From the IMG/VR virus record IMGVR_UViG_3300002460_000067, positions 1 through 42,214 of that record: a DNA stretch of 42,214 nucleotides; one strand, written 5' to 3'. Below are positions 22,663 through 41,771 of the stretch, in pieces (position 1 is the stretch's first letter; the number at the start of each line of letters is the position of its first letter). Under the pieces are notes generated by a model. That model searched no databases. It saw nothing but the letters and a program-made list of their open reading frames with translations, and had not been told where the DNA came from. The position numbers were made by a program, and so were the translations under genes. This DNA is from a virus.

Positions 22663-23817
22663 TTATTTGCTCGTGCTGAACGTGTGAATGCGCGCGTGTG
22701 CCGTCTCGTTGGCCAACACAAACGAAAATTCTCCAAGAACTTCCTTGACATCATAGTCACCGGTGCTGGCGCGGTCGTACAGGTCGAAATTGCGGAAGGT
22801 AATCCATCCCATCCGGTCCGGTTCAATGATGTACAGGTGGTCGGTCGGACACCATTTGTCATACATCACTTCCAGTTCCCCGAAGTCAGTGACTATGGTG
22901 GTGATGATTGCGCCGCCGCGGTCTTCTGACCGGTCGGTGCGAATCGCGCCCTTGAAGAAATTAGAAATTTTGCGCCGTCCCCAAGCGCCGCACACGATGG
23001 TGTCAGGCGACCCGCCCGCCTCATAACACAATTGCATGTTGTCTTCGATCATCTTCAGGGTGAGCGAAGCGCTTGCCGCGTTCGTGACGTTGGTGGTCAC
23101 GAACTGATTAAAACCGCCCATGCTGCGCGCGGTGCTGGCACTGCCGGCCGCGCGCATACCGTGATAGAAAGACTTGCACAGGAGGATAGCCAGTTTCCCG
23201 GCTTTGCCCCGCGACCCAATGCCATCGCCGCCGCCGATAAGCTTCGACAGGTTGTAGGCCATCGTGTCACTAATTCCGTATTTGGGATTGACTTTCTCTG
23301 ACCCGGTAATCACGACTGCTTCCGCCAAAATTTGCGTGTAGTTGTAAGGTACGCTGATCGTAGTGGTATGGCCGGTGTCGTAGTCTGCACCTTCCAGCCG
23401 CGCGCTGGTCACGATCTCCCAGGCGGTGTCGTCGTCGTGCGTTGCCGCCGTAGTGCCGGCAAAGCCGCGTACGACGGTCGCGGTGTTAGTCGCGACTGCC
23501 GAGACGTACATCAGCTCGCTGCCGACTTTGAGAATATCGCCCTCTTTGAGAATATCGCCCTCGCCGGTCTGCACGTCTACGCCGGTTTCGCTGTCGTCGA
23601 GCGCCTCGTTCAGCGTGCCGGTTCTCGGGCTCATGGTATCCTCTATCCACTCTGCTTTGGTGTTTGGCCAATTGAGCAGGCGGAACTTTTTGGCATTGTC
23701 CAGTCCTAGACGGTTCAGAAGCGGCGCTTCCGTCCAGTCAATCAAATGTACTAAATCACCGATGCCACGCTTGATATTGTTGGTATCGGTGTAGGTTGTT
23801 CGTGTACCCGTTGCCAC
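22663..23817 (-). CDS. major capsid protein (HK97 fold, DUF5309/SU10-like)
   Basis: 384 aa following the scaffold gene. The sequence pattern (..VRGFAGTTAATH.., ..YNYTQILAEAV.., C-terminal ..YIIEPDR..) matches my recollection of the family. Confidence 0.8.
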   Translation of the reverse strand: MATGTRTTYTDTNNIKRGIGDLVHLIDWTEAPLLNRLGLDNAKKFRLLNWPNTKAEWIEDTMSPRTGTLNEALDDSETGVDVQTGEGDILKEGDILKVGSELMYVSAVATNTATVVRGFAGTTAATHDDDTAWEIVTSARLEGADYDTGHTTTISVPYNYTQILAEAVVITGSEKVNPKYGISDTMAYNLSKLIGGGDGIGSRGKAGKLAILLCKSFYHGMRAAGSASTARSMGGFNQFVTTNVTNAASASLTLKMIEDNMQLCYEAGGSPDTIVCGAWGRRKISNFFKGAIRTDRSEDRGGAIITTIVTDFGELEVMYDKWCPTDHLYIIEPDRMGWITFRNFDLYDRASTGDYDVKEVLGEFSFVLANETAHARIHTFSTSK

Positions 23818-24534: not shown

Positions 24535-24564
24535 TGGTTTAACTCCTGTCGTAAGGTTTGGGAA

Positions 24565-24600
24565 ATAAAAAAGGCCACGTCTCAATTTGAGACGTGGCCT
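24565..24600 (-). terminator. Intrinsic terminator (minus strand)
   Basis: 12-bp stem spanning 24572-24600 with a 5-nt loop. On the minus strand it is followed by TTTTTTATTT (24571-24562). Confidence 0.8.
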
Positions 24601-24741
24601 TTCGGTTTCCCGCTAAGCGTATTTAGTTGTGCCCCGTAGGGCTAGGCGTCCAGGTAGGAATTGCACCCCAAGCGGTAGCTTATGAGACTACCGCCGCACT
24701 GCGCCCTGTCCGCAAACTTCCCGTGCCGCCACTTTGCTGGC
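24565..24741 (-). ncRNA. Non-coding leader / candidate ~175-nt RNA between promoter and terminator
   Basis: Bounded by the promoter at 24748-24776 and the terminator at 24565-24600. It has no credible ORF or SD and contains several hairpins, for example GCGGTAG/CTACCGC at 24672-24694. Confidence 0.55.
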
Positions 24742-25527: not shown

Positions 25528-28500
25528 CTATTGCGTTTTTATTCCACGTATCCACGACGGCGACCACTTGCGCGGCTCGCCTGGTCGCAGTTGTTTCCCG
25601 GCATTCAGCCAATCCAAATCAATCTGCGGGTTCTGGTAACTGGCCATGCGTGGCGGCTCTGCTAATCCGCTGGCCATGCTCTGGCCGTACACATTCGGCA
25701 TATTGACGATTGTTTTGCGCTCAGTCGGTTGGTAGCCGCCGTATCCACCATGAGCACCCCCGCCGCCTCCACTGCGCGGCGTGTATTCTTTCTTCTCTCT
25801 GCCATACCACCAATCCGCCCACGCGTTATACTGCGGGTTCTTCTCGTACCATAACCGGCGCTGGGTAGCGTCCCACCCGCGCTTGAACTGAGAAACAACA
25901 TCCCAAATGTTGTCGCCGAACATTTCTTTGGCCGTCGCATAGTCCGCGCCGAAGTTATATTTAAAATCGTCGCTGCCTTCCTTAGATTCGTCGTAGTTGG
26001 CGGGTCGGCCATTCAACCATGCGCCGAAGAGAAAGGCTTTGGGATTCTTGTCGTAGTATTGCGCTCTGGCCGCCTTGGCCTCTGGCGTGTCGGCATAGGC
26101 GGGTGTGAGCGCCCAGCGTCCCAGCGCGTCATCGCCAAACTCTTTGAGCGCTGGAGCCAATTCCTTGCTGTTGTAGGCGTACAGGTTGATCGCACGCATG
26201 ACGGGATTTTTAGTAAGGTACTCCTTACGGGCATCTCCCTTGGGAAGCGAGTAATACTCGTCCCACATGGCCGCCCCACCCGTATCAAAGAACTTTAGCA
26301 CGGCGCTGCGCCTGGCCGCCCACTCTGCGCGGGTCATCTCGCCCTTGACCCATTTGTCATTCATCGAAGCATAGTCGCGCGCTGTCTTTAGGTCTGCGCT
26401 GCCGGTTGTAGCTGCGGTGGGCTGCTCACCAGGCAAGGGCGAAAAGGTTGGCTGTACTGGCGCCCCCTTGCGCGTGCTGCCGGTCGCGCTCATCTGTGAC
26501 GGTATAGCCTCACCGCCCAGAATGCTCGCATTCAGTTCGTTAGCGCGCTGTGTCCAGGGATTAGATGCAGGCTGGTTCAGCACATTATCCCAATTGCGAT
26601 TGACCCACGGGCTGGGCTGTTGTTCCTCAGCCGGCGCATAGGGGTCGAAGGTTCCCAATGCCTGCCGTTCGCTACCCACGGGGCGCGGCCCGGTGTAGCC
26701 TTCCCCCGCGCCTGCGTTGGGGATAATCGCTTCATCCTCTGGCGTGGTCGTCGCGTTGGGATCATAACTCGCCTGGTCAACGTCTTGGAATTCTTTTTTC
26801 CACTCCTTGTAGCCGGTGTAGAGCATGTGCTCTTCCGGGTTGGCCTTCAGCCACGCTACAAAAGCGGCCTTGCCTTCGTTCGGTACGCTGTTGAGAATGT
26901 CGAAAATGTTGGGACCAAATATCTTGACTGCCTCGTCATAGGCGGCCCCGTAACTGTCTGTACCTCTGGCGTCACCAAAGCGCCGCCCTTTTAGCCAGAG
27001 TTTGGCCGCTTCTGCATTCGGATACTGATCGTTAAATGCCGCGGCCTCAGCGTAATAGGCGTTTAGTTGCGCCTCTGTTGCCCCATCGCCGGGATGCTTG
27101 GGCCCATTCTGCACCATCGCGAACGCGTCCGCCCCAAAGCGTTTGACAAATTCGTCATACTCCTGCGGATGGAAGCTGGCAAGCATTGCCTGATCGACAA
27201 GCGGGTTGGCTTGCTTGTATGCCTTGCGTTCTTCCCCAGTTTTGGGCAGGGCGTAATACTGAGATAACAACTCATTCCCTGCCGCCCCCATGCGCTCGTC
27301 TACGTTCTTCTCGTTCAGCTTATATTGCGCGTCCTCTACCTCTTCAACAAAACTTTGCCGGTCGCTCCAGGCTTTTTCCACATCCCCGGCATATCTGTTC
27401 TCATACCCGCGCAATAGCTCACTGGCGTACATATCCTTGACCATCTTACGCGCGGCATCCTTCCAGGGATCAGGGTACGTGTCATCCTGATTCAGCAACT
27501 GCGTGAACTGGCGGTCGTAGTAGTCGAGTCTGGCGGTGTCCCATTTGGCTTTGTCCAGGTAATAGGCTTTCTTGTCCTCTGGACTGGCATCCTTCCCGGG
27601 GTAGACAGGCTTCCCCGCCGGCTTGTGACTGAGAACCGACTGCACAAATCCCGCGGCATGTTCAACGGGATTCATGTAGGTAGTGTTGAGATGTTTGGTT
27701 TCCTTCTCCGGCAATGATGGATACTTCGCCTTGAGTTCCTCTACCCTATCCCAGAAAGGTGATTTGAAATCATTTACCTCTTTGCTCGTGGCGTCCGGAT
27801 TGTCAATTAAATATTTAGCAACCGCCTGCGTCATCTCATTCATAATGACGCCGTGCGCGTTATAGTATTCGTTCTGTACGGCCTTCTCCCCTGGGCGCAA
27901 CCGTTTGCGATCATCACCCTGCGGATAGAGAACGCTGTAATTGAAGGTGGCGTCAAAGGCTTCGGGCTGCATTCCGGTGTAAGCGTTGACGGCTTCTCTG
28001 CTGCCGTAGGGGTTGGTTACCTCATTGTAACCTAACTTTGGGCGCGTCTCTTTCATCTCGCGCATCTGCTGTTCTTCGGGCGACAGGTTATAGCCCGGTA
28101 TGCCGGTGAGAAATGCCATTGCGCGGTTCTGAAATCTATCCCACCCTGCCGCCGATGCGCCCTGTTGCCAGGCCCCGGCTGCCCCGGCTGATTGCTCCGG
28201 TAGCGGTTGACTGCCCGTCTGCTGCTGATAGCCTACGTCACTGGCCCACATTGCATCCTGCGGGTTGACCTCCCCGCGCAGTCCGGCAAGCGCCACCTGT
28301 TTCCCGGCGCGCCCATAGTCGTATTCGTCGCCATAGGATAGCGCGCCCTGCGGTCCCATCTGACCGGTCATGCCCTGCCGCGCGTAGCCCGCAAGCTTGT
28401 ACAGGGGCAGGACATCCCCCAGTTGGAATTCGTCAGTTCTCCTCTTGCCGCCCGGTAATGGGTTGCTCTGGTCGAGCGCGTAGTTCATCGCATAGCTGGC

Positions 28501-31500
28501 GAGCGGATACATGGCGGGGGTGTATTTCTGGACGGTCATCTTCCAGCGCTCAAACTCACTGCGCGCGTCATCGGGATTGACGAAATCGCTGCCCAGATAC
28601 ATCGCGATGGGTAGCGCAAATGTTAATGGGTTGAGTAGGCGATCCGGTCCGAAGGGTAGCGGATTCTGCACCGTGCCGCGCAGATGTTCCGGTACGTTGT
28701 TTTGCTGATTCTCCATCTCAATCGCCCGTTGCGACTCATACCACATATTGACGATACCGGGTTTCTGTACGGCGCGCGCCAGCCAGTTTTTAGCGCTGTG
28801 ACTCCAAAAATAATGAAACGGAAAAAGTATAGCCAGCCACACATCCAGATTGCGCTTGTCGTGATAGTTGAGCATGGCGAAGTTGCCCATCTGCTCGCCG
28901 GTGCGCACAGCCCCCGCCAAGATGTTATCGTACTGCGGGAGCATCTCTTGTAGCGCATCGAGCACGCGCAGTTGCTGCGCCGGCGTCATCGTGTTCGGCT
29001 TGCCCGCCAACAGTTCCGGCAAGCGTTGGATGATTCGTTTTTCCGCGTCGCCCAAGGTTCTGATCGTGTGCTGCGCGACCTCGCCCATTTCGGGCGCTTT
29101 CTTGCCTAGTAGCTCGGTGAGGTTGCTATTGACGCCGCTCACTAGTTTGTATAGGTCGGTTTGTTTGGCGCTCTCGGTCAGGCCATAGGGATTCCAGCCA
29201 CTGGCGTTACTCGCCAGTTTATAGGGCGTTTCGTGTAAAACTTGCAATTGGTCAATCAATTTTCCGAACGCCTGCCCCAGCCCTACACCCATCTCTGTTT
29301 CCATCGGCGTAGAAACAAAGGGCGTTTTTAGCCTAACATAATCCTGGACTAGCGCCTTCACGCTGGCCTGGTCAGTAATCTTTACTCCGGCAATGGTTAG
29401 CCCGCTGAATTTGTTTAGCTGCGCCGCGGTCAGCGGATTTTTCCCCGCCGCCACTTTCGCCGCAAGTTCATCAATCGGAGGCAACTGGTATTCATAGGCA
29501 TAATCTTGCCAAGCCCTACGAATGTCGCCGGAGGTAAACCCCTGTGTACTCTTGGCCAGGGGTGGCTTCGTGGGTGTAGCCGCGGGCAAAGTTTTTACTT
29601 CCACGTCTGGTCCTGTGGCTGTATATTTTGCGTAATCGGTCGGCTGGTCGCCTGCGGCCTGTGTGAGTTTATAGGCGTCCTGTTGCGCCAGCGCTTCCGC
29701 CTCTTGTGCCGCCCACTTCGCCGCACTGTCGGCGTCAAGCTCCTTGATCAGCGTATCGACAATGTTCGTGTTCTCCCCGATGACCCGGTAAAAGTCCTGC
29801 AATACTTTCAGCGGCACTTCGGGCAGCGCGGCGGCGAGGGTTCCCGCCTTGCGCTGCTTGGCCAGTTCCACCGGGTCGGCGAATCGTTCAAGCGCGCCGG
29901 TCGCCACATTGCGCGCTTGCCAGTAGCCATCCTGTAATTTCCCGACGAGTTGAAACTCGCCGCCCGCAAAATCATCGGTCCACTTGAGCGCGCCCTTCGC
30001 CATATCCGCCACGCCACTAGCCACAATTAACCGCTTGACGACATTGTTGTGGACAACGGCATTGTCAAAGAACTCAGCCCACACTTGATTACGCAGTTTG
30101 TAATAGGCGTCCGTTTGCTTGGGTAGCATACTGGCGCGTTTGTCGGCCAGGAATGCCGCGGCCTTTGCGCCTAGCTCCTCCATCTTGCGTAGTCCATCGG
30201 CCATCAGGTCAAGACTGTTTTGTGACGGATAGCGTCTGAACGCACTGAAAAGCTCTACAGCGCTCTTATCGACATACTTGCGGTTAGCATCCAGTGCCTT
30301 AGCAAACACGTCGCCTGCGGCTTGTGGTGAGCCTACGCCGAGTCCTGCGGTGCGCGCCGCCTGAATCTCTGCCTCATCGTAGGATGCATAGCGCTTGATG
30401 ACATCGAACCAGTCATACGCGCCCTCTACAGGTTGACCCTGCTCGAGTTTAATCAGATTCTGCCGCGCTGAGTCTACGGCCCGCTGGAAGAAGTCAGTGA
30501 ATCCGCTATAGATTTGCTTGGTTCCTTCAAACTTGCGCGCCCAGGCGTCACCCGTGTTGGCTGCAATGGCCGCCTTGCTCAACTGGTCTATCTGCGCCCT
30601 GGCTGTAGTGCGCCAGTCGTACCATTTGGCGAGCAGGTCCATGGCCACGTTCAATGACTGCGGGTCGGTCGCTCCGACGAGATCGCCGCGCAGGGTTGTC
30701 CACAATGCCGACTCTGTATCGGCGATTTGCTTCATGAGCGTCTGCGCTTCCTGGCGCGCCACGTCACCCGGCATCCCCCCGCGCTTGGCGGCTTCGGTCA
30801 TGCTGTCTACTACGTCCGCGCCGTCCTGCATCGACTCGAACTCGGTCCACACGCCACGCCCGGGTTGCGGTGGCGCTCTGTTGAGTAGCTCGCCGGCCTG
30901 CTTAAACTCTTCGCCAAATATCTGGCGCACTTTGGCCGCCGCTTCATCTAACTGATTCGGTAGACTCTCGCTCAACAGCGTGTTGAGTTTGGCCCACCCT
31001 TCCGCCGATACCAGTTCATCAGGTACGCCCAACTCTTTGAGTGAGAACGGTATCACCTGCCCGCTCGTCAACTTGCGCAGGGTGGCCGCCATCTGCTGTT
31101 TGTTGCCGTTAATGCCCACATCCGCCACGGTGGCGCTCAAACTCTTGGCCAAGTTGGGATCAATGCCCAGGCCAGTCAAGGTCTGCTCAAAGCCCTTCGC
31201 CGCGTCTGTCCAGTTGGAGGTCAGGTAGCGCTTGAAGGGTACATAAGTAGCGCGTAATGCAAAGTTTTGCTCGCCGAATGAGATGACGCCGAGGATGTCA
31301 GTATTCCCAAAGGGAATCTTGTACAGCCGCTTCATCAGATTGCTATAGCCCTGGGCTATAGGGTTGCCGTTAAATAGGCGCTCGGCCCAGTGCAGTCCGC
31401 CCATCACTTCCTCTGCTGATTGCCCAAGGGCTGACCCTGCCGCCTCTGCTGTACGCGTGGTCGGCGCCATACCTCCAAATTTGGTCATCAAATCGTTCAT

Positions 31501-33897
31501 GATTGCCTTGGTCGGGAGCAAGGTCATGGTGTTGTCGGCGATCAGCGTAGCCGCCGCGTTGGTAGCATTTTTTATCCAGTAGCCTGGACTCATGCCCAGG
31601 TACATATCAGACAAAATTGCTTTCTGTATACCCCATGTGGCAGCCAGTGGATTCTGTCCCCCTGGCCCCGCCGCGGCAATAGCCTTCTTCAATTGTTTGG
31701 CTTGAAGTTGTGCGTCATAGGGCAACATCTCCGCGGACTGTTTTAATACTTTGCCCGCTTTGTCTACATATTCAATGACCGACGTTCCCGTCGCGGTGCG
31801 CGTCACGCGGAAGTTGACCGCGCCCGCGGGTAGATTGTCCAGCGTCTTGAGTCCGAACAATTCGCGGCTGGCCTTATAGAGTACGTCGTTGAACTCGGCA
31901 AAAAATTCCTGCGGGGCAAATGTAGCCGGGTCGCCGGTCAAGCTGCGCATATTCAGCAATGCCTCACGCGCCTTGACGATCACCGGATATTGTTTTAGTA
32001 GTTCGGAGTTGGCGACAACGCCCGGCCCCCACTTGGTAATCTCGGTTGAGCCAGGCAGTACAACCCCCTCCACCAACTGGCGCGGGTCATTCGTCCACAG
32101 GTCGAGCACGGCGCGGGCGCTCGTCTTGTCGGTGACATCTGACATAATGTTGGCCGCGGCGCGCCAGAGGATGTCCGTCGCCATGTGCGCGTTCGTGTCC
32201 GCAGTCCTGGCGAACGGGTTGACCGCGCTCCACCACCCGCCCACGTTGCCGCCCAGGGCGGTCTTGGTCGCGTCGTCGATTACACCGTCCAGCGCGTTCA
32301 ATGCCTGTGCTGGCGTCATGTTCATAAGCGCCGCCGCCTTTGCCGCCTGTAATGCCTCACGCGACGGCGCCAATGAGATGTTCAGCGGGTCTAAGATCAC
32401 CCCGCCCAAAAATTCCGCCCAAGCGTTGCCGTGTTCGTCAATGATTTCCGTCTTGGTTTTATTTTTAAGTTCGTTGGCCTGCGCGCCGTACTGCGCGGCT
32501 TCTAAATATTTGTTGTTTACTGCGTCAAAAGTTTCTTTGGTCATCGGACGATTAAGGTAAAATTTATAAGCGTCCTCGGTCAAAGGCCTCGTCGAATCGG
32601 TAAGCCCTTGCGCGGCCGCCAATGCCTGCTGCGCTTTCTGCTCAAGTTCGGCAACCATATCATCTTGGTTGAGAATGGCGTCAATCGCGCTGCGTGTTTC
32701 CTCTGGCCCGGCGATCAGTTTGACCATCGCCGCGTTCGCTTCAGTACGCAGTTCAGGCGGTAGGGAATCAAAGGCCATGCGCACGGCTTGACTATTGCGC
32801 AGATTGTCCCAGAAGAGTTTTGCCGCAGTATCGCCTAACGCGTTGGGCGCGTTGGGCGTATCGTCAAATAAATCCTTCACGCGGTTGGGATTGCGCGGGT
32901 TCAGCGTGCGATTAATGGCCTCGCCCGCGGCGCTCGCCAACTGCCCCACGCTCACATCCTCACCACCCAGAAACGCACCTGTGCCGGGAATCTGCGTGGT
33001 TTCAATCGCCTTGCCGCCCAGGGAAAGCGCGGTCAATACGTTCCGCGCGTTGTCCCCCAAGGCGTCTATTCCCCGATTGCTGCCTTCGGCCAAACTATCC
33101 TTGGCTTGCTGTTCCAGGTAATCATACCCAGGCGTCGCGCCAAACGCGGCCTTCAGCGCCCAGTCTACTGGCCCCACTTCCTTGGCATAATCAGCGCTGA
33201 GTCCGGCGATCTTCTGGGCGCCTTGCCAGCCGCCCAACTGCTGCCACGCATATTTGGCCGCATCGATAACGGTGGGCGCATAGCGCGTCACGCCCCAGGC
33301 GTCTTCCCGCGGCGGCGCGTATGGGTCATAGGGGGCGGTAGGGCTGCCCATCGTGGGCGCTTGCTGTTGCTGCCCGGTCATCGGGTTGACCCCGGTGTCT
33401 GGCCGCGTCAACGCATAATCAACGGTCGCCGGTTTTACATCGTACAGGTTGGGTCTCACCTGTGGTTGTCCAGTGTTAGCGGAGGAGAGCGGGTTATACT
33501 CCGGTTGTTGCGGTGGACCATTACGCCAAGCGTCCATAGCATTGAGCCACTTGTCTTCTGGTGGAGCGGATGGAGCAATGGGCGGACCCACTGACGGGAC
33601 CATGGGGCGCGTCTCGCCGGGGCGTAGTGGACCCTGCACGGGCACATTGATAGGGCGCAAAACATCAGAGACGGAAACACGCTGCGCGGGGGCAGTCGCA
33701 TGTTCGGCCTGCCGCCATTGCGCCATTGCCGTCTCTAGCGGATCGGCGCGCTGAACGGAAGCCTGCGGCGCGGTCGTCGGCGCCACGGCCTGCCGCCACT
33801 TCGCCGCCTGGCGGGCGCGCTCCGCTTCAAATTCGGCCTGCGCCGCGGCTTCATCTTCGCCGTTCCACCAATCGGTAATCCCATTCCACCAAGACAT
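25528..33897 (-). CDS. giant virion-module protein, 2,789 aa (function unknown; possible internal or ejection protein)
   Basis: A single uninterrupted ORF with GAGGGA 7 nt upstream of the ATG. It lies between the portal and scaffold genes. I recognise no catalytic motif. Confidence 0.85.
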   Translation of the reverse strand: MSWWNGITDWWNGEDEAAAQAEFEAERARQAAKWRQAVAPTTAPQASVQRADPLETAMAQWRQAEHATAPAQRVSVSDVLRPINVPVQGPLRPGETRPMVPSVGPPIAPSAPPEDKWLNAMDAWRNGPPQQPEYNPLSSANTGQPQVRPNLYDVKPATVDYALTRPDTGVNPMTGQQQQAPTMGSPTAPYDPYAPPREDAWGVTRYAPTVIDAAKYAWQQLGGWQGAQKIAGLSADYAKEVGPVDWALKAAFGATPGYDYLEQQAKDSLAEGSNRGIDALGDNARNVLTALSLGGKAIETTQIPGTGAFLGGEDVSVGQLASAAGEAINRTLNPRNPNRVKDLFDDTPNAPNALGDTAAKLFWDNLRNSQAVRMAFDSLPPELRTEANAAMVKLIAGPEETRSAIDAILNQDDMVAELEQKAQQALAAAQGLTDSTRPLTEDAYKFYLNRPMTKETFDAVNNKYLEAAQYGAQANELKNKTKTEIIDEHGNAWAEFLGGVILDPLNISLAPSREALQAAKAAALMNMTPAQALNALDGVIDDATKTALGGNVGGWWSAVNPFARTADTNAHMATDILWRAAANIMSDVTDKTSARAVLDLWTNDPRQLVEGVVLPGSTEITKWGPGVVANSELLKQYPVIVKAREALLNMRSLTGDPATFAPQEFFAEFNDVLYKASRELFGLKTLDNLPAGAVNFRVTRTATGTSVIEYVDKAGKVLKQSAEMLPYDAQLQAKQLKKAIAAAGPGGQNPLAATWGIQKAILSDMYLGMSPGYWIKNATNAAATLIADNTMTLLPTKAIMNDLMTKFGGMAPTTRTAEAAGSALGQSAEEVMGGLHWAERLFNGNPIAQGYSNLMKRLYKIPFGNTDILGVISFGEQNFALRATYVPFKRYLTSNWTDAAKGFEQTLTGLGIDPNLAKSLSATVADVGINGNKQQMAATLRKLTSGQVIPFSLKELGVPDELVSAEGWAKLNTLLSESLPNQLDEAAAKVRQIFGEEFKQAGELLNRAPPQPGRGVWTEFESMQDGADVVDSMTEAAKRGGMPGDVARQEAQTLMKQIADTESALWTTLRGDLVGATDPQSLNVAMDLLAKWYDWRTTARAQIDQLSKAAIAANTGDAWARKFEGTKQIYSGFTDFFQRAVDSARQNLIKLEQGQPVEGAYDWFDVIKRYASYDEAEIQAARTAGLGVGSPQAAGDVFAKALDANRKYVDKSAVELFSAFRRYPSQNSLDLMADGLRKMEELGAKAAAFLADKRASMLPKQTDAYYKLRNQVWAEFFDNAVVHNNVVKRLIVASGVADMAKGALKWTDDFAGGEFQLVGKLQDGYWQARNVATGALERFADPVELAKQRKAGTLAAALPEVPLKVLQDFYRVIGENTNIVDTLIKELDADSAAKWAAQEAEALAQQDAYKLTQAAGDQPTDYAKYTATGPDVEVKTLPAATPTKPPLAKSTQGFTSGDIRRAWQDYAYEYQLPPIDELAAKVAAGKNPLTAAQLNKFSGLTIAGVKITDQASVKALVQDYVRLKTPFVSTPMETEMGVGLGQAFGKLIDQLQVLHETPYKLASNASGWNPYGLTESAKQTDLYKLVSGVNSNLTELLGKKAPEMGEVAQHTIRTLGDAEKRIIQRLPELLAGKPNTMTPAQQLRVLDALQEMLPQYDNILAGAVRTGEQMGNFAMLNYHDKRNLDVWLAILFPFHYFWSHSAKNWLARAVQKPGIVNMWYESQRAIEMENQQNNVPEHLRGTVQNPLPFGPDRLLNPLTFALPIAMYLGSDFVNPDDARSEFERWKMTVQKYTPAMYPLASYAMNYALDQSNPLPGGKRRTDEFQLGDVLPLYKLAGYARQGMTGQMGPQGALSYGDEYDYGRAGKQVALAGLRGEVNPQDAMWASDVGYQQQTGSQPLPEQSAGAAGAWQQGASAAGWDRFQNRAMAFLTGIPGYNLSPEEQQMREMKETRPKLGYNEVTNPYGSREAVNAYTGMQPEAFDATFNYSVLYPQGDDRKRLRPGEKAVQNEYYNAHGVIMNEMTQAVAKYLIDNPDATSKEVNDFKSPFWDRVEELKAKYPSLPEKETKHLNTTYMNPVEHAAGFVQSVLSHKPAGKPVYPGKDASPEDKKAYYLDKAKWDTARLDYYDRQFTQLLNQDDTYPDPWKDAARKMVKDMYASELLRGYENRYAGDVEKAWSDRQSFVEEVEDAQYKLNEKNVDERMGAAGNELLSQYYALPKTGEERKAYKQANPLVDQAMLASFHPQEYDEFVKRFGADAFAMVQNGPKHPGDGATEAQLNAYYAEAAAFNDQYPNAEAAKLWLKGRRFGDARGTDSYGAAYDEAVKIFGPNIFDILNSVPNEGKAAFVAWLKANPEEHMLYTGYKEWKKEFQDVDQASYDPNATTTPEDEAIIPNAGAGEGYTGPRPVGSERQALGTFDPYAPAEEQQPSPWVNRNWDNVLNQPASNPWTQRANELNASILGGEAIPSQMSATGSTRKGAPVQPTFSPLPGEQPTAATTGSADLKTARDYASMNDKWVKGEMTRAEWAARRSAVLKFFDTGGAAMWDEYYSLPKGDARKEYLTKNPVMRAINLYAYNSKELAPALKEFGDDALGRWALTPAYADTPEAKAARAQYYDKNPKAFLFGAWLNGRPANYDESKEGSDDFKYNFGADYATAKEMFGDNIWDVVSQFKRGWDATQRRLWYEKNPQYNAWADWWYGREKKEYTPRSGGGGGAHGGYGGYQPTERKTIVNMPNVYGQSMASGLAEPPRMASYQNPQIDLDWLNAGKQLRPGEPRKWSPSWIRGIKTQ

Positions 33898-33978: not shown

Positions 33979-35517
33979 TTAGGTCGCCCTCATCCAACGC
34001 GTGTTTGCTCTTTGATTGCGACCGGTCGCCGCCAACAACGCCTGCTGCTGTTGCGCCTGCATCTGCGCGAATGCTAATTCGCGCTGCTGGCCTAGCTCCT
34101 GCTGTCGATATTGCTCAAGCGCTCGCTGCGTATCAAAATCGAGACTGAAGCGCCGCGCCTGCTCCTGCTGCGCCTGGCTCAACTGCGCCGCCTGCAAGCC
34201 ATAGGTCTGCTGCTGTGTCAGTTCAGCAAGCGCCGCGTTACGCTGGCCCAGGTCAAGCTGACCAGATTTATACATCTGGTCAATCTGGTTTGCTTGCTGC
34301 GCTACCCCCAGTTGCCCCTGTTGCACGCCTAGCTGTCCCTGCTGTACGCCCAGTTGCCCGCGCGCTATATCCTGTTGACTGTTCTGGATATGGAACGTCT
34401 GCTGTTGCGTCACTTCGGCCAAGGCCAACTGGCGCTGCTCGTTGCTGAGACGGCCTTGATTGTAGGCTTCATTGATCGCATTCTGTTGGCGCTGTACGTC
34501 CAGATTGCCCAAGCCCAACTGCTGTTGGATGTCAGACTGCCGGTTGCCTAACGCTAACTGGCCGCGATTGTTGGCATCTGTAATGTCCAACTGCCGGTTG
34601 CCCTGGTCGAGCTGGCCCATCTGGTACTGGTTACGAATATCCAGTTCCCGGTTGCCGATGCCAAGTTGGCCCTGCTGATACTGGTCGCGTATATCCAGTT
34701 CCCGGTTGCCGATGCCCAACTGCCCTGTCTGGTAGGCGGCTTGCTGCGCGTTCTGCGCGGCGCTCTGGCGCAACTGCTCGCGCTGTGCGTAGTCCTGTAA
34801 ACCAAACTGTTGTTGGCTAAATCGCTGATTCCAGGCGTCAAGTCCGCTCTGTCGATTGTAATCCTGCGCCCACTGGCTTGCCGCCTGCTCCGCTTGCCAC
34901 TCGGCCATTGTCTGCTGTCGCCCCGACAGTTGCATATTGTACTGGTCGAGTCCCTGCTGATAGCCAAATTGCTCGTTCCAACGGCGCTGCGCCTCGTTGA
35001 AATCTTGGCTGTACTGGTAGGCATTCTGGCCTAATTGCCAAATCGGAACGTTGGCCTGCACCGCCTGTAATGCCGCCTCGCGCTCGTCGTTGGATTGTAG
35101 CGTAGTCGGGTCAAGACCTTGGTAATAACTGAATTGATTCGCCTGTGCGGGCTGCCCCTGACCGGACGGCGTATACTGCGGGTAGGTCGGGTTATAGTAT
35201 GGCTGCTGTGTACTGCCATCCTTGCTCGGGTTGTATGTCCCCGGCAAGGGGTCGGGTCGGTAGGTGCTGCCGGGTCGCGTCTGCGATCCCCCGCCCCCCC
35301 GCGAGTTATTGAGCATTTGCTGATTCCACTGGCGCGTATTGCCCATCCCCTGGCTGGTGCTGTACTGGTTCGGATTGTAGGTCATGCCCTGGCCAAAGGT
35401 CTGCCCCTGTGGCGTGCCGCCGTAGGGATTCGTGCGCGTAGTAGGCTGTTGCTGCTGCATGAATGTCTGATTTGTCGGTTGCTGCGCGTAGGTGCGCAGA
35501 TTGTTGCTAATGGCCAT
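33979..35517 (-). CDS. glutamine-rich repeat protein (512 aa)
   Basis: Visibly Q/N/G-rich, with 18-aa repeats (GQLGIGNRELDIRDQYQQ and variants). Its start overlaps the portal stop (TAATG). Confidence 0.7.
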   Translation of the reverse strand: MAISNNLRTYAQQPTNQTFMQQQQPTTRTNPYGGTPQGQTFGQGMTYNPNQYSTSQGMGNTRQWNQQMLNNSRGGGGSQTRPGSTYRPDPLPGTYNPSKDGSTQQPYYNPTYPQYTPSGQGQPAQANQFSYYQGLDPTTLQSNDEREAALQAVQANVPIWQLGQNAYQYSQDFNEAQRRWNEQFGYQQGLDQYNMQLSGRQQTMAEWQAEQAASQWAQDYNRQSGLDAWNQRFSQQQFGLQDYAQREQLRQSAAQNAQQAAYQTGQLGIGNRELDIRDQYQQGQLGIGNRELDIRNQYQMGQLDQGNRQLDITDANNRGQLALGNRQSDIQQQLGLGNLDVQRQQNAINEAYNQGRLSNEQRQLALAEVTQQQTFHIQNSQQDIARGQLGVQQGQLGVQQGQLGVAQQANQIDQMYKSGQLDLGQRNAALAELTQQQTYGLQAAQLSQAQQEQARRFSLDFDTQRALEQYRQQELGQQRELAFAQMQAQQQQALLAATGRNQRANTRWMRAT

Positions 35518-37457
35518 TAGGGTCTAATTCCTTCCTGCGGTAAGCCCGCCAGTAAATTCAATTCTTCGCCAGGCGGTAGGGGATTCCCCATCATCTGTGC
35601 GAATAGCGCGGGGTCGCCCGCCGGCGGCAGGCCCATCATCTCCGGTTCGATTTGTCCGGCCATCGCGGGCGGAATCCCGCCGCCTTGCGGCATGGGAATC
35701 GCGGGCGGTTGGAGGGGTAACGGTCCCGGTGGCGGCAGTCCCATCCCAGGTGGCATCATACCCGGTGGCGGTGGCATCATACCAGGAGGTGGCCCACCTG
35801 GTCCCATCGCTGGCGGTGGCGGTTCCTTTGGTCCGAACATCCGTTCCGCCACCTGTTCCAACGGCGTTCCTTTGATGATCATTTCCCAGCTTTTCGGACG
35901 CACTTCGATGAGTTTCACCAACTGGATGTTCTGCGCCAGTTCCGGCGACTCTAATAACTTTTCTGCCCATATTCTGTCCTGTTCATCGTTCGGCATATCC
36001 ACCGATACCCATTTGTCCCAGAACGTTTGTTTCGACAGATTGCCGCTATTGACCATCTGCAAGCCAAACGCCATGCGTTGGGCGTCATCCTGTGGAAGAT
36101 TCGGACGCAACGTCACCATATTCTCGTAATAGCCGTCAATGTCCTTCCCGTAGAGACATAATTTATAGATTTTGTCGTCTTTGGCACTCTTGCCCCAAAT
36201 CTCAATGCCCTCCTCGTCGTCGTCGAAGGCTTCAGCGAGCGCCATTACCGCCTCATTCACCTGCATGACGGCCATTTCCAGGTACTCCAGGGGCGATTTA
36301 ATGCGCCCGCGCGCCGCGTCGGAGAGCAAAGACACCCCATAGCCCGCCTGCATAGAGCCGGATTCTCCATACAGCACACTCGGGAAGGCGCTTTGCTGTA
36401 ACGTCTCATCGAGTTTGGCCAGCATCGACTCCATGACCGTAAGATTGACCTGCGGCATGACCTGATTTATCTTCGTGCCAGCCGGAACATGCTCCGTGGC
36501 GCCCGGCCTGACTTTGAAATCGGGAACTTCCACCCCCTCTTCGTTCTCTACCGTAAAAAACGGCCAGGTCGCCCATAGTACGCCGGTGCCCAAGTTGCTC
36601 TGGAGACGGCATTTGTACTGCCAGGGTCCGTCCAGCGGATACAAAATCGATAATCCGCGGTGTGACTCGTCTTTGGTCGGCGCAGAATCGCCGTACACCT
36701 CGATGATCGGGATAAATGTATAGTCCGTCTTGCGCGACGGACGCGCAAACTCGTCTTCCACCAGCACCGCGTTCCAAATGTCGCCAGTGGTCGGGCTTGT
36801 CCACCAGAAATCAATCACACATAGCTCGTCGTTCTCGTCAGAGCGACGCCGCCCCGGCGTACGCGTGTCATCATCGGTGAACAACCTCAGTTTCGGGTAA
36901 CGCTGCCGGATATTTAGGCGTGATTCGCGGTATTTGTGGTAGGCGTACTCGGTATAAAGCGGCCCGCGATGCACGCCTACCGCCAACGGGTCGAGCGTGC
37001 GAATGAGAATGGGGAAACGGCGCTCTTGCATCGCCTTGGGCAGTGCATCCTTAATCCACTTGACCTCAAAACAGCAGCGACCGCGCACGAGAGAGAGCCA
37101 CGCCGCATCATACAGGATGTTGCGGCCTTGCAGGTGGCCAATGCGCTGCCACATGGCCGTTAAAAAGCGCTCTTTGGCCTGCGCGGCCTTGGCTGCATCC
37201 TCAGTGTTTTCCTTGGCCGGAACGTCAATGCGCGGCTGCGTGGAAATCAGCCGCTGCGCCAAATTTACGACGTTGTACGGGTCGGCGGTGACGACCATTT
37301 CCCGGCCATCTTTGTTGATGGAATCAGAAAGCGTCTTGGAAAATCCTGGGTCGAGCAGCCACATTTTCTCCCACTGCTCAGCCATCTCCACGTATTTGGC
37401 GCGTTTGCTCTCTGTGTTGCTGACGCGCTGTAATATCTGTTCTACATCCAGTTTCAT
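35517..37457 (-). CDS. portal protein
   Basis: 646 aa downstream of terL, separated from it only by two small ORFs. ATG 37457 is chosen because the track start (37493) lies inside the terminator hairpin. The assignment rests on size, position and general sequence character. Confidence 0.65.
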   Translation of the reverse strand: MKLDVEQILQRVSNTESKRAKYVEMAEQWEKMWLLDPGFSKTLSDSINKDGREMVVTADPYNVVNLAQRLISTQPRIDVPAKENTEDAAKAAQAKERFLTAMWQRIGHLQGRNILYDAAWLSLVRGRCCFEVKWIKDALPKAMQERRFPILIRTLDPLAVGVHRGPLYTEYAYHKYRESRLNIRQRYPKLRLFTDDDTRTPGRRRSDENDELCVIDFWWTSPTTGDIWNAVLVEDEFARPSRKTDYTFIPIIEVYGDSAPTKDESHRGLSILYPLDGPWQYKCRLQSNLGTGVLWATWPFFTVENEEGVEVPDFKVRPGATEHVPAGTKINQVMPQVNLTVMESMLAKLDETLQQSAFPSVLYGESGSMQAGYGVSLLSDAARGRIKSPLEYLEMAVMQVNEAVMALAEAFDDDEEGIEIWGKSAKDDKIYKLCLYGKDIDGYYENMVTLRPNLPQDDAQRMAFGLQMVNSGNLSKQTFWDKWVSVDMPNDEQDRIWAEKLLESPELAQNIQLVKLIEVRPKSWEMIIKGTPLEQVAERMFGPKEPPPPAMGPGGPPPGMMPPPPGMMPPGMGLPPPGPLPLQPPAIPMPQGGGIPPAMAGQIEPEMMGLPPAGDPALFAQMMGNPLPPGEELNLLAGLPQEGIRP

Positions 37458-37473
37458 AGGTTTGTCCACAAAA

Positions 37474-37508
37474 TAAAAAAGGCCACATGACACAATGTCA
37501 TGTGGCCT
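37474..37508 (-). terminator. Intrinsic terminator (minus strand), second copy of the conserved cassette
   Basis: 13-bp stem spanning 37480-37508 with a 3-nt loop. On the minus strand it is followed by TTTTTTATTTT. Confidence 0.8.
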
Positions 37509-37534
37509 TTCGGTTTCCCGCTAAGCGTATTAAA

Positions 37535-37750
37535 TTATCCAAAGCGTTCTAATCGCTTCACCGCCTTGGATTTACGGATGACCGGCAAATGAAAATGATT
37601 TTCGGTCGCACGAATGAATTGACAAAGCGCGCCGCGCACTTCATTCATCTGCCGGCGCTCTTCCACGCCCTCTATTGTATCAGGAGGGGGGAGCGTAGTC
37701 AACATGTAATATGCCAGCCGATACAGTCCAAGCCATAGATGGTCGTTCAA
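37535..37750 (-). CDS. hypothetical protein
   Basis: Track ORF with an ATGA overlap with the upstream gene. Confidence 0.55.
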   Translation of the reverse strand: MNDHLWLGLYRLAYYMLTTLPPPDTIEGVEERRQMNEVRGALCQFIRATENHFHLPVIRKSKAVKRLERFG

Positions 37751-37935
37751 TCGTCCACCTCTCGCCCTTCCAGGAAGGCGGCAAGGAGAGCGGCCCCCTG
37801 GGCCATATCACGCCATAAATGTCTGAGCAAAGAACGCGCCAACTCCTCCATAGACCGTTTTGCTACCCGTTGGCGCTCTTTCTCATCGGATGCTGACACA
37901 AGATAAACGATTCGTTTTTCATGAGTAGTTATCAC
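37747..37935 (-). CDS. hypothetical protein
   Basis: Track ORF with an ATGA overlap with the terL stop. Confidence 0.55.
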   Translation of the reverse strand: MITTHEKRIVYLVSASDEKERQRVAKRSMEELARSLLRHLWRDMAQGAALLAAFLEGREVDD

Positions 37936-39377
37936 AGATACCCCCGTATCTCGCTCTTGCGCTCACTCTTGCGGCGCTCGATTGCGCTGCCAAACTTGTC
38001 GAACAACCAATATCCTAGCGCCTTGAACGCATCGTTGTTGGCGTCGATGGGGCGCTGCGCCTGGCTCATGCCCTCCGTCCAGTCCGGCCATTTGTACAGA
38101 CCCGCCTCGGCAATAATCCCGTGCGCCCGGCCTTGGACATCACGATCACTGCGCATGTGATGGGCAAAATATAGGAGCGGTTGGCCCGCTATCGGATGCA
38201 CGCGCAGGCGGTGGCGCACCACCTCTATCCCCTCCGGGATAGAGATCTTCCTGCTGCGCAGATTCAACCCTGTCTCTTCGCGCCAGATTTGCACCTGGCT
38301 CTTGTTGGCGTGATGCTGCTTGCCTGCTACGTCAATCACGCCCGCCGCAACATGCTTCCACCACGGCTTGGCCACGACCAGCGGAATCACATCGTAGACG
38401 CTCGTGTCGTGTTCGTATATCTCATCTATCACCCTGACCTCATGTAACTGCACCTGCCGCCCCGAGGCTACGGTCGTGAAGTGCGGCAACGGTCGCCACT
38501 GCATCGCCAACACCGCATAGGTGTGCTGCGCCGGGTCAATCGCCAATTCAATCGGCAAGGTCTTGTCGAAGGGCAACGGCTTTACATGCAGGCGCCGGTC
38601 GAATATCTTGAATACCAATCCGCTACTCTTATAGGGAACGGCGGCCACACGCTGTAGAAATAATTCCGGTGTAATGCCATTCTCCAGGTCTTTAATTTTT
38701 GAGTCCAGCCTACCCAGGGGGAACTTGGCCGTGTTGCTCCAACTGGGCAGGCTGAAACTCCTGCCGCCCTCTGGATTGCTGCCTTGCCACTTCTCCCACA
38801 AGTCAGCGTACCAGGGCTGGGCGTCCTCCAGGGTGCCGGTCATGAAAATGCGCGAGCCATGTTCTAACGCCCGCTCCTGCAATTTCTCATAACTGGCGTG
38901 CGTCTGTTGCCCCATCTCCACGCCCGCCAACGCATGGGGCGCAAAGCTGGCAACCGTCGCCAGGTCTTTGGCGCTCTTCGTCTGCACCCGACATCCCCAT
39001 ATCGTGGTAAGGCTGCGGCTCCCCTTCTCCGGGATAGACTCGCTCTCTATGAGCGCCATTGCCTTGAGTGGGGCGTACATATAATCAAACTCGCCCTTCG
39101 CCTGTTCGTAGTCGGGGCCCACCAACCAGATCAACCCGCGGTCGCGGAAAATGTGTTTAAGTAACTCCATCGCCAGGAACTGAGACTTGCCAGCGCGAAT
39201 TCCACCCGTCACCATCACCAGGCGATTCGTGCATTCGTGGATTTCCCGCTGCCCACGACTTACCGTCCGCTCATTCCCTTCCAGGTCGAACACCGGAAAA
39301 TACCCTTCCGTGGGCTTATAGCCTGCTTCAGCCCAGAGTAGGCGCAATATCCGCGCCTGTTCAGCTTCTGAAAACAT
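37932..39377 (-). CDS. terL: terminase large subunit
   Basis: Walker A 'VMVTGGIRAGKS', suitable size, and the portal gene 0.4 kb downstream. ATG 39377 lies 5 nt after AAGGA. The track ORF's 54-codon N-terminal extension runs into the repeat array and is probably not translated. Confidence 0.9.
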   Translation of the reverse strand: MFSEAEQARILRLLWAEAGYKPTEGYFPVFDLEGNERTVSRGQREIHECTNRLVMVTGGIRAGKSQFLAMELLKHIFRDRGLIWLVGPDYEQAKGEFDYMYAPLKAMALIESESIPEKGSRSLTTIWGCRVQTKSAKDLATVASFAPHALAGVEMGQQTHASYEKLQERALEHGSRIFMTGTLEDAQPWYADLWEKWQGSNPEGGRSFSLPSWSNTAKFPLGRLDSKIKDLENGITPELFLQRVAAVPYKSSGLVFKIFDRRLHVKPLPFDKTLPIELAIDPAQHTYAVLAMQWRPLPHFTTVASGRQVQLHEVRVIDEIYEHDTSVYDVIPLVVAKPWWKHVAAGVIDVAGKQHHANKSQVQIWREETGLNLRSRKISIPEGIEVVRHRLRVHPIAGQPLLYFAHHMRSDRDVQGRAHGIIAEAGLYKWPDWTEGMSQAQRPIDANNDAFKALGYWLFDKFGSAIERRKSERKSEIRGYL

Positions 39378-39383
39378 TACTAT

Positions 39384-39904
39384 CCTTTGCTGCGCCGCGC
39401 TGCGCCTGGCCTTGCCTTTGCTGGGCGTGGCCGTGCGTTGCCTTTGCTGCGCCTTTGCTATGCCTTTGCTATGCGTCGCATTGCTGTGCCTTTGCCTTGC
39501 TGTGCTGCGCGGTGTCATGCGCTGCCTTTGCTGTGCCATGCGTGGCCACGCCTTTGCTGCGCCTTGCTAAACGTTGCCTCGCATCGCCCTTGCATGGCCA
39601 AGCGACGCCATGCCTTTGCTGTGCATTGCTCTGCGGGACCATGCCTTTGCTGTGCAGCGCATTGCTGCGCGGTGTCATGCCTTGCCTTTGCTGCGCCGGG
39701 CGTCGCGGTGCGATGCCTTGGCTGTGCCCTGCGGCGCCTTGCCTTTGCTGCGCCGGGCGTCGCGGTGCCTTGCCTTTGCTGCGCCTTGCTAAACGTTGCC
39801 TCGCATCGCCCTGGCGTGGCCAAGCGACGCCCTGCCTTTGCTGCGCCGGGCGTGGCGATGCTGTGCTACGCCTTTGCTGTGCGGGGCATAGCATCGCCTT
39901 TGCT
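39384..39904. repeat. Array of 16 GCCTTTGCTGYGC boxes (non-coding)
   Basis: CCTTTGCT starts at 39384, 39415, 39441, 39452, 39463, 39489 (variant), 39525, 39551, 39613, 39644, 39685, 39742, 39773, 39835, 39871 and 39897, all in the same orientation. Nested longer duplications occur at 39551-39612 / 39773-39834 and 39504-39520 / 39664-39680. Confidence 0.9.
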
Positions 39905-40483
39905 GTGCATATAGGAAAATCTGCCGTAACTGGCGTTGCGCCATTGACCTAAACCACGATACTTCCCGTAGTCTAGCCATTCTTCCAACAGTTCCGGCGT
40001 AACGACCTTGCTGTCCAACACGTCCAACGTGAAAGCAATGCTGCTCCCCGCTGCGATCATCTCGCTGCACGCTAACGCTACCCGTTCGCCCTGCGCGGTC
40101 TGTGCCCGCAGTGGTCGTTCTAATGCGCCAATCTCCCCGCACACCGTTATAGGAATCTGGCGCGGGAAGACGAACACCAGCCCGTCGATTATCTTCTTGT
40201 AGGCTCTCAGCTTCTTGCTGCCCGTTCCATCCACCCGCGCCAACATCCCGCAGGTATCTTTAAAGAAGCCCTTAATCACATAGTCATAAAGAATAGGATT
40301 GCCCGCCGCGTCCCGGTGGAATCCCGTCTTGCCCTTGTCCTCACCGATGGTGTCAACCTCATCGTGAGGAAACTCACCTACCCCGTTCGTCACGCGATTC
40401 TCCGCGATGTACGTCGAATAAATTTCCTTATCCATCGGAGCCGTACCCAATAAAGGTTCCGTAAACGTCAGTACAATTTTCAT
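39866..40483 (-). CDS. hypothetical protein with RAMP-like sequence hallmarks (205 aa)
   Basis: ATG 40483 follows GGGGGGA. The protein begins MKIVLTFTEPLLGTAP, has 'GNPILYDYVIKGFFKDTCGML' in the middle, and has a glycine-rich 'GLGQWRNASYGRF' near the C-terminus. Confidence 0.6.
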   Translation of the reverse strand: MKIVLTFTEPLLGTAPMDKEIYSTYIAENRVTNGVGEFPHDEVDTIGEDKGKTGFHRDAAGNPILYDYVIKGFFKDTCGMLARVDGTGSKKLRAYKKIIDGLVFVFPRQIPITVCGEIGALERPLRAQTAQGERVALACSEMIAAGSSIAFTLDVLDSKVVTPELLEEWLDYGKYRGLGQWRNASYGRFSYMHSKGDAMPRTAKA

Positions 40484-41520: not shown

Positions 41521-41565
41521 TAGGGTAGGGTTAATTATCGTAACCGGATAATTAACCCTACCCTA
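41521..41565. repeat. Perfect inverted repeat, 18-bp arms and 9-bp spacer
   Basis: tagggtagggttaattat (41521-41538) pairs with ataattaaccctacccta (41548-41565). It lies in a divergent intergenic region. Confidence 0.9.
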
Positions 41566-41570
41566 TATTA

Positions 41571-41759
41571 TACCTTGTTTTACCTTATAATACATTATTT
41601 TACCTTATAATACCTTATAATACATTATTTTACCTTATTATACCTTATTTACACAATGTATTCTAATGTATTATAATGTATTTTACCTTATTATTATAAT
41701 GTATAATACATTATTTTACCTTATAATACATTATTATACATTATTTTACCTTACCTTGA
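41571..41759. repeat. AT-rich array of TAC(C/A)TTAT boxes
   Basis: TACCTTAT at 41581, 41601, 41611, 41631, 41641, 41684 and 41717. TACATTAT at 41591, 41621, 41707, 41727 and 41737. Inverted ATAATGTA at 41673 and 41696. Variants lie at 41571, 41747 and 41752. Confidence 0.85.
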
Positions 41760-41771
41760 AAGGAACCATTT

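Follow-up and report, generated by a model that had tools for sequence, protein, structure and literature searches.

A 2,789-residue protein encoded among the head genes of a 42-kb phage genome: architecture, relatives and a possible role as a packaged delivery frame

The window analysed here is the whole 42,214-nucleotide stretch of IMG/VR virus record IMGVR_UViG_3300002460_000067 (positions 1 to 42,214), and our subject is the giant protein of 2,789 amino acids (aa) that it encodes between its portal and scaffold genes. Positions 1-75 and 42140-42214 form 75-bp direct repeats that are 100% identical. Since the first 75 bases of the window equal its last 75, the window represents a complete genome, either circularly assembled or terminally redundant, with a length of 42,139 bp. 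The giant open reading frame (ORF) occupies 19.9% of this genome, and the second-longest ORF of the window has 799 aa. We propose that the giant protein is probably the conserved frame, or chassis, of a large uncatalogued family of phage polyvalent proteins that are packaged in the head and ejected with the DNA. The packaging and head genes around it are given below in gene order.

37932..39539, minus strand: TerL, the terminase large subunit (phrog_2, E=3.8e-18)
35517..37493, minus strand: portal protein, 658 aa (weak SPP1_portal match, E=0.0025; otherwise assigned by position)
33979..35517, minus strand: Gln-rich protein, 512 aa, the upstream neighbour of the giant gene (no Pfam or PHROG match)
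25528..33897, minus strand: giant ORF with an ATG start, 2,789 codons; product of 306.5 kDa, pI 5.3, without cysteine
Between the giant ORF and the scaffold gene: two small ORFs of 84 and 123 aa
23821..24585, minus strand: putative scaffold protein, 254 aa (by its position directly upstream of the capsid gene; no family match)
22663..23817, minus strand: major capsid protein of the SU10_MCP type (PF17236, E=2.6e-56; phrog_1328, E=1e-47)

The first-pass annotation had described a single uninterrupted ORF of these coordinates and of about one fifth of the genome, and so it is. It had also given the order as terL, portal, Gln-rich protein, giant protein, scaffold and capsid. The order stands. The two small ORFs were missing from that description, the scaffold is assigned by position only, and the portal match is weak. 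The giant ORF is a real gene under strong purifying selection, because a codon alignment with a 72%-identical orthologue on the 35.5-kb contig L007 gives a nonsynonymous divergence (dN) of 0.187 against a synonymous divergence (dS) of 1.54, a dN/dS ratio (omega) of ~0.12 overall. In windows of 200 codons, omega is 0.06-0.11 over aa 401-1400 and, where dS is unsaturated, over aa 1601-2789; it rises to ~0.3 in the first 400 aa. Identity to the same orthologue is only 43% over aa 1401-1600. A GAGG Shine-Dalgarno-like site lies ~9-12 nt 5' of the start codon. With 57% GC and ~3.6% stop codons expected, the chance of 2,790 open codons is ~e^-100 by our own arithmetic. Comparison with homologues and structural modelling with AlphaFold2 (AF2), read through its predicted local distance difference test (pLDDT), divide the protein into the following regions.

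33148..33897, minus strand: N-terminal Pro/Gln/Trp-rich region, aa 1-250 (P 12.8%, Q 8.4%, W 4.8%)
29722..33147, minus strand: N-core, the N-terminal conserved block, aa 251-1392 (boundaries from BLAST against homologues)
29299..29721, minus strand: variable slot, aa 1393-1533, a facultative cassette of ~135-140 aa with no PDB sequence match by phmmer
29254..29310, minus strand: junction motif TPMETEMGVGLGQAFGKLI, aa 1530-1548, at the start of the C-terminal block
28528..28965, minus strand: signature module, aa 1645-1790, the most widely conserved part of the giant protein
27508..28527, minus strand: helical part of the C-terminal block, aa 1791-2130, the best-modelled part (AF2 pLDDT ~65-93; omega ~0.06-0.07)
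25531..27507, minus strand: C-terminal helical-repeat region, aa 2131-2789, with a duplication, YYxLPKxxxRKxYxxxNP motifs and a conserved tail

The absence of cysteine from all 2,789 residues is accompanied by frequent tryptophan (2.4%) and tyrosine (4.1%). The Pro/Gln-rich N-terminus recognised in the first-pass annotation is rich in tryptophan as well. It diverges faster than the remainder, with its tryptophan motif MSWWNG..DWWNG kept; in alignment A1, M1 is invariant and W3 nearly so. The N-core holds a widely conserved motif, QKAILSDMYLGMSPGYWIKNA, at aa ~755-780, and the profile region 750-950 was detected in ~45% of 136 distant representatives. The C-terminal region contains an internal duplication in which aa 2186-2414 (nt 26656-27342) match aa 2520-2730 (nt 25708-26340) with 27% identity and E down to 2e-9 by self-BLAST. 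The Gly/Tyr-rich patch reported earlier is SGGGGGAHGGYGGYQ at aa 2709-2723 (nt 25729-25773), and W2778 and P2772 of the C-terminal tail are nearly invariant in alignment A1. Two stretches, at aa 2093-2117 (~27547-27621) and aa 2262-2289 (~27031-27114), follow the pattern KPxxPGDxAxxExxxxYY. They resemble the pancreatic-polypeptide (PP) fold, in which a polyproline helix packs on an alpha helix, and they are the source of the sole weak Pfam and PDB sequence matches.

The giant protein has no recognisable domain in Pfam, PHROGs, NCBIfam or the PDB, in agreement with what the first reading of the sequence had suggested. A Pfam search of the whole protein at E<=1 returned only two sub-threshold chance matches, and neither PHROGs at E<=1 nor NCBIfam at E<=0.1 gave any. 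A profile of 16 family members run against all PDB sequences found only PP-like mini-motifs at E>=0.03. AF2 modelling with family alignments covered aa 240-1400 and aa 1530-2130, together 63% of the protein. Both segments are almost wholly helical, with long helices, and two small beta units are the addition in the N-core. The first segment reached a pLDDT of 63 and a predicted template modelling score (pTM) of 0.36; the second had a mean pLDDT of 65 and is good only for ~aa 1800-2130. A Foldseek search of a PDB set current to April 2026 returned nothing at E<=0.001 for either segment (best E 0.42 for aa 240-1400 and 1.2 for aa 1530-2130), and the ejection proteins of T7, N4 and P22 were not among the matches returned. 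Against BFVD, aa 240-1400 drew matches to long-helix and tape-measure proteins with TM ~0.06-0.09 and probability <=0.25, which were rejected as generic helix similarity.

Motifs expected of particular enzymes were equally absent, as had been stated before. Neither Walker A nor HExxH is present in the giant protein, and Pfam gives no match to an SLT or lysozyme family. Nor do the family alignments show an obvious conserved acidic catalytic motif. GDD and DxxGR strings do occur; they were dismissed as signs of an RNA polymerase of the T7 or N4 type, being isolated and placed inside the non-conserved repeat region. Pfam recognised no endolysin, holin or integrase in the 30 other ORFs of the genome. 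The lack of an endolysin elsewhere does not place a lysin in the giant protein, and the earlier suggestion of a hidden cell-wall-degrading domain was not borne out, since no peptidoglycan hydrolase was detected there and Peptidase_M23 appears in one of 11 relatives scanned.

The giant protein does not stand alone: a search through 5.8 billion proteins turned up 23 homologues, each of 1,800-4,730 aa. Pairwise BLAST against them resolved two collinear conserved blocks, aa ~1-1392 and ~1530-2789, on either side of a slot whose content varies even where the flanks are 60-75% identical. The slot is empty in homologues P0003 and P0008. It holds ~135 aa in the giant protein of this phage and in P0001, P0002 and P0010, and 175-714 aa in P0004-P0007, P0009, P0014, P0017 and P0020. 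It is larger still in P0018 (1,619 aa) and P0019 (2,083 aa). The largest insert, of 2,670 aa in P0022, contains N6_Mtase, SNF2 and Helicase_C domains, a DarB-like combination of methylase and helicase; the homology of P0022 to the giant protein is full-length (E=3e-106; profile E=5.5e-263). The giant protein of this phage is nearly all frame, with only a small cassette in its slot. No prophage copies were found in two scans of GTDB species genomes. Two homologues carry metagenome-assembled genome labels (Caldilineaceae and Hyphomicrobiaceae), which may merely reflect binning.

One kind of cassette marks the edge of the slot. DUF3626 (PF12294) is recorded for P0004, P0006 and P0009 in precomputed Pfam annotation, and a direct scan confirmed it in the P0004 insert at E=7e-11, above the Pfam cut-off. 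DUF3626 is a domain of the Salmonella effector SopF (PMC6682159), and SopF is an ADP-ribosyltransferase (PMC10333799). A phmmer search of the PDB with the cassette did not reach SopF, so that the link to SopF rests on the Pfam match alone. The junction pattern T[DE][FMLY]GxGxG[QE]x[FLM]G has a single copy in close relatives and two copies exactly where the DUF3626 cassette is inserted. In this phage, the motif T(D/E)FGxGxGQxFG stands at aa 1534-1545; in P0004, P0006 and P0009 it flanks the cassette on both sides. This arrangement suggests that cassettes are swapped at the junction motif or that the motif is a functional delimiter. The duplicated motif may be a recombination joint or a processing site.

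Beyond the close family, a profile search reached more distant giants (P0024-P0037), most of which share mainly a ~140-aa stretch corresponding to aa ~1645-1790. Its consensus in alignment A4 is (D/N)FAMLNY..RRN.D....PYHYFW(S/T)RS..NW..R...KP...Y......EN....P..L.G, in which conserved Asp, Arg, Pro and aromatic residues form a distinctive pattern. An exhaustive HMMER search with this module over 1.84 billion representatives, clustered at 50%, matched 1,845 proteins at E<=1e-3, of which 1,275 reach E<=1e-10 and 280 reach E<=1e-30. By sequence, then, the family comprises at least 1,845 clusters at 50% identity. Among 140 newly returned top matches the median length is 2,774 aa and the maximum 5,564 aa, and 108 of the 140 have at least 2,000 aa. 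There is one copy of the module per protein, typically ~650-1,100 aa before the C-terminus, and the giant protein fits this with its copy at aa 1645-1790. In ~40-50% of the top matches, portions of the N-terminal block and of the sequence that follows the module can be detected as well. The module profile had no match in the PDB, and 20 diverse module sequences had none in Pfam. A tblastn search of 50,697 GenBank phage records with the giant protein and a divergent module found only MW202608 and its duplicates. This is an uncultured 'Podoviridae sp.' genome from Manatee Spring that was deposited five times, and the match covers the module stretch only.

The cargo of these relatives consists of enzymatic and effector domains. 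A census was made by Pfam scan of 11 larger module-bearing proteins and a handful of others. Among the 11, ddrB-ParB was found in four, ART-PolyVal in three, and GGDEF and SNF2/Helicase_C in two each. Peptidase_M23, PBECR1, LPD3 and a Strawberry-notch-type helicase were found once each, together with several methylases. The ART-PolyVal and ddrB-ParB proteins among P0027-P0037 share the module, with domain E-values of 1e-13 to 8e-28. Wherever both were mapped (P0022, P0027, P0031, P0033 and P0064), the cargo is on the N-terminal side of the module. It also lies C-terminal to the N-block match in P0022 and P0031, where that match was mapped.

The position of the giant gene is conserved along with its architecture. 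The order terL, portal, (small ORF), mid-sized protein, giant, scaffold and capsid protein is found in the window and in nine comparable contigs. These loci include L001-L004, L006, L007 and L010, and L005 agrees up to its contig end, which comes before the capsid gene. The syntenic contigs come from four data sources, are mostly 35-43 kb long, and one of them has an integrase. The terminase has ~450-535 aa, the portal 580-660, the mid-sized protein ~200-550 and the scaffold-sized protein ~200-250. The order is kept though the portals diverge to ~20% identity, and it is kept across two capsid-protein Pfam families, SU10_MCP and GP7. L005 carries at 1-1475, upstream of the packaging genes, a trio of prokaryotic E2-like, JAB and ThiF (E1-like) proteins, a ubiquitin-like conjugation set.

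The closest known parallel in kind is the polyvalent protein. Polyvalent proteins are giant proteins of phages and plasmids in which anti-restriction and host-modifying domains are joined in series (Iyer, Burroughs, Anand, de Souza & Aravind 2017, J Bacteriol, PMC5512222). Those of the phage type are encoded beside virion genes and have been argued to be packaged in the capsid and injected, and DdrB-ParB was assigned specifically to this type (PMC5512222). Like them, the giant protein is a single polypeptide encoded beside the portal, terminase and head genes of a portal-terminase phage, and its relatives combine ART-PolyVal, DdrB-ParB, methylase-SNF2, GGDEF, PBECR1, LPD3 and M23. The 2-15 effector or anti-defence domains per polypeptide that characterise polyvalent proteins are found in the relatives and not in the giant protein itself. 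It falls outside the literal definition, yet it is, by sequence, clearly homologous to proteins within it. In two further respects the family differs from polyvalent proteins as described: its members share a ~2,600-aa frame that matches no Pfam LPD family, and its cargo sits at one fixed internal slot instead of forming a free string of domains. What is uncatalogued is the frame, the single fixed slot and the 140-aa module, which is in none of Pfam (including the LPD families), PHROGs, NCBIfam and the PDB; the kind of protein, a phage polyvalent or ejected head protein, is already known.

Individual systems resemble the giant protein in part. The podovirus protein phi24B gp47, of 2,811 aa, is abundant in purified virions by mass spectrometry, is unseen in cryo-EM (cryogenic electron microscopy) maps and has been proposed to be an ejection protein (bioRxiv 10.64898/2026.04.10.717836). 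It is likewise a protein of ~2,800 aa from a short-tailed phage and is classed as a large polyvalent protein. In contrast to the giant protein, it has LPD5, LPD1, LPD38 and a MuF-C metallopeptidase, and it is encoded behind the tail genes, at the distal end of the late region, instead of between portal and scaffold. An hhalign comparison of the family profile with gp47 gave a probability of 0.09%, so homology is undetectable. The resemblance to P1 DarB, a head-packaged anti-restriction protein, comes through the homologue P0022, whose slot pairs an N6-adenine methylase with an SNF2 helicase, a pairing discussed in PMC5512222. The giant protein itself lacks both domains (no Walker A, no Pfam match). 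DarB is not known to have the frame that surrounds the slot, a distinction drawn here without a direct comparison.

Inside the heads of phages with short tails are ejection proteins, which lengthen the tail so that it crosses the envelope (PMC9509320). The role proposed here is similar to that of T7 gp14/gp15/gp16, P22 gp7/gp16/gp20, SU10 gp20-24 and N4 gp50-52, that is, expelled internal head proteins that bridge the envelope. The giant protein is helical, and its mass per copy is comparable to that of a whole set. It differs from these sets in being one polypeptide instead of three to five proteins and in lacking a transglycosylase domain and any similarity to them in sequence or, over the 63% modelled, in fold. 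The likeness to T7 gp16 or N4 gp50 considered in the first-pass annotation is therefore one of proposed role only. In T7 and P22, ejection-protein genes follow the tail genes, whereas the giant gene follows the portal gene. The latter position, just downstream of the portal, recalls MuF and SPP1 gp7, and MuF domains often occur in fusion with effector domains that are delivered into the host (PMC5512222). Membership of a MuF-type family, also raised earlier, does not hold: the giant protein has no Phage_Mu_F match even at E<=1, and it is ~10 times larger.

Taken with the cargo domains of the relatives, which match those of polyvalent proteins, the example of phi24B gp47 and the presence of ejection proteins in podovirus heads lead us to the reading of the giant protein as a probable delivery frame. 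In this reading, the protein would be made late and then built into the procapsid close to or at the portal. There would be room for a few copies next to the 42 kb of DNA. T7 and P22 accommodate ~1.5-2.7 MDa of internal protein beside ~40-43 kb of DNA, and by analogy a handful of 306-kDa copies would fit. On infection, the protein would be expelled by way of the portal and tail channel, ahead of the DNA or together with it, would help to build or extend a conduit across the cell envelope, and would carry the domain in its slot into the host cell. The cargo of relatives (methylase and SNF2 helicase, ADP-ribosyltransferases, a ParB-like nuclease, GGDEF, an RNase and an M23 peptidase) would then serve anti-defence and host takeover. 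The giant protein of this phage would act mainly through the chassis itself, since its slot holds only a ~140-aa cassette. The strong constraint on a protein that is nearly all frame points to an essential role of the frame. The conserved ~140-aa module (aa ~1645-1790) could be a docking or translocation element.

We infer indirectly the presence of the giant protein, or of any detectable homologue, in virions from the cargo domains of relatives and the conserved gene position; these favour the encapsidated ejection or polyvalent head protein that had been suggested from the sequence. Several points weigh against the delivery-frame reading. The giant protein carries no domain that defines polyvalent proteins, and its membership comes through frame homology to proteins that do. 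It has no detectable similarity to experimentally studied internal or ejection proteins, either by hhalign to phi24B gp47 or among the Foldseek matches returned. It is predicted to have no membrane-spanning segment (the maximum Kyte-Doolittle mean over 19 residues is 1.16). The role given to the module is a guess, since the model has a low pLDDT of 35-66 over it. The conduit does not follow from the data and is borrowed by analogy from other podoviruses.

A purely structural internal head protein, such as an inner body, a DNA-organising core or a head-size scaffold that is not delivered to the host, is a rather unlikely alternative. The location of the gene in the head-assembly block beside the scaffold gene would suit such a protein, as would its nearly all alpha-helical make-up with long helices and repeats and the lack of an enzymatic domain in this phage. 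However, the same frame in relatives holds DNA-modifying, ADP-ribosylating and nuclease domains, which would be useful only in the host cytoplasm, and a separate scaffold-like gene already exists upstream of the capsid gene. It is also unlikely, and a little more so, that the protein stays out of the virion and acts as a late or early protein only in the infected cell, for instance as a platform for replication, anti-defence or takeover, with its place in the head block being accidental. The cargo enzymes of homologues could in principle act after their synthesis in the cell. Against this, the position between portal and scaffold is strict in 9/9 comparable contigs despite the divergence of portal and capsid proteins. 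A DarB-like methylase and helicase made late would moreover come too late for anti-restriction unless packaged for the next infection, an argument taken from PMC5512222.

We give little credence to a tape-measure-like or other tail-internal protein. The protein is long and helical, and several tape measure proteins are among its Foldseek matches in BFVD; those scores amount to generic long-helix similarity, and there is no PHROG or Pfam tape-measure match. Its gene lies between portal and scaffold, outside any tail block, and the ORFs scanned include no recognisable tail tube, sheath or chaperone, as the first reading had also noted. In addition, the capsid family is named after the short-tailed phage SU10, and the sole GenBank relative is labelled Podoviridae. 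Least credible of all is a virion RNA polymerase of the N4 gp50 or crAss-like type diverged beyond recognition: the size of 2,789 aa is similar, the phage is a podovirus and no phage RNA polymerase was recognised in the 30 other ORFs, but Pfam, PHROGs and NCBIfam give no match, the family profile finds no polymerase among PDB sequences, none is among the Foldseek PDB matches returned for aa 240-1400 and 1530-2130, no conserved acidic catalytic motif is apparent, and the rest of the protein is duplicated helical repeat.

The immediate upstream neighbour of the giant gene may be relevant to its function. The Gln-rich 512-aa protein contains tandem 18-aa repeats, GQLGIGNRELDIRDQYQQ, that correspond to 54-nt repeats at 34582-34743. 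It is 31% identical to a 550-aa protein at the same position in L002, and the portal is 42.5% identical to the L002 protein at its own position. The Gln-rich protein may be a partner of the giant protein or a second internal protein. No candidate ejection protein other than the giant is recognisable in this genome. The remaining genes with a recognised product are as follows.

3967-4353, minus strand: HNH endonuclease
4367-6766, minus strand: primase with a VapE-like domain
6763-7509, minus strand: PAPS-reductase-like protein
7497-7865, minus strand: LuxR/GerE-type helix-turn-helix regulator
9016-10062, plus strand: ERF recombinase

Repeats of several kinds are also present in the window. Near the genome end, 41545-41773 is a low-GC, AT-rich array with a 10-nt period, units such as TTATAATACATTATTTTACCTTA and at least 13 registers; it resembles an origin or iteron array, or else a cluster of regulatory binding sites. 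Dense repeats spaced by 26/31 nt, with the core GCCTTTGCTGCGCC, fill 39375-39909 and overlap both the annotated 5' end of terL and what lies upstream of it. Since homology to TerL is seen only from ~aa 94-97 onwards, the true terL start may lie downstream, and this array may be a packaging site (pac or terS-binding). A 66-nt element, 83% identical between its two copies, lies before the scaffold gene (24563-24628) and before the portal gene (37471-37536). On the minus strand, it consists of a GC-rich hairpin with a T-run followed by a conserved stretch of ~30 nt, and it resembles a terminator or attenuator combined with a restart signal. In the early region, a 93-nt repeat, 99% identical, occurs at 1774-1866 and 2111-2203 and partly at 1493-1526, with a spacing of 337-344 nt, and includes a hairpin-like pair, GGGGGTGGGCG / CGCCACCCCC. 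Thirteen overlapping registers with a 15-nt period lie at 10962-11246 inside the plus-strand ORF 10804-11463, which would encode a pentapeptide-repeat protein. A perfect palindrome, TGTTTCACGTGAAACA, is part of a conserved 47-nt unit at 13562-13608, 19847-19893 and 20015-20061, and several of its copies are inside a 428-aa tail-like gene (19510-20796).

A bolder form of the delivery-frame reading can be put forward tentatively. The ~2,600-aa frame might be the single-polypeptide ejection apparatus of a very large uncultured lineage of short-tailed phages, replacing the multi-protein sets of T7, P22 and N4, with one plug-in site for enzymes of up to ~2,700 aa. The module would then be a new portal-docking or translocation domain, and the near-empty slot of this phage would make its giant protein a minimal frame. 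We consider this version doubtful as a whole.

If the delivery-frame inference holds, uncultured phages very commonly carry such a delivery frame, and this genome has a near-minimal version of it. The module is present in at least 1,845 clusters at 50% identity, whereas only one genome with it was detected in 50,697 GenBank phage records. The 140-aa module is a good marker for annotating giant proteins now labelled 'hypothetical'. A frame that tolerates inserts of 0 to ~2,700 aa at one site would, if the reading is true, be a natural vehicle for enzymes into bacteria, and the family would be a ready catalogue of phage counter-defence cargo. It would also provide a test system for the question raised by phi24B gp47, namely, how a ~300-kDa protein is stored in a capsid and passes through the portal.

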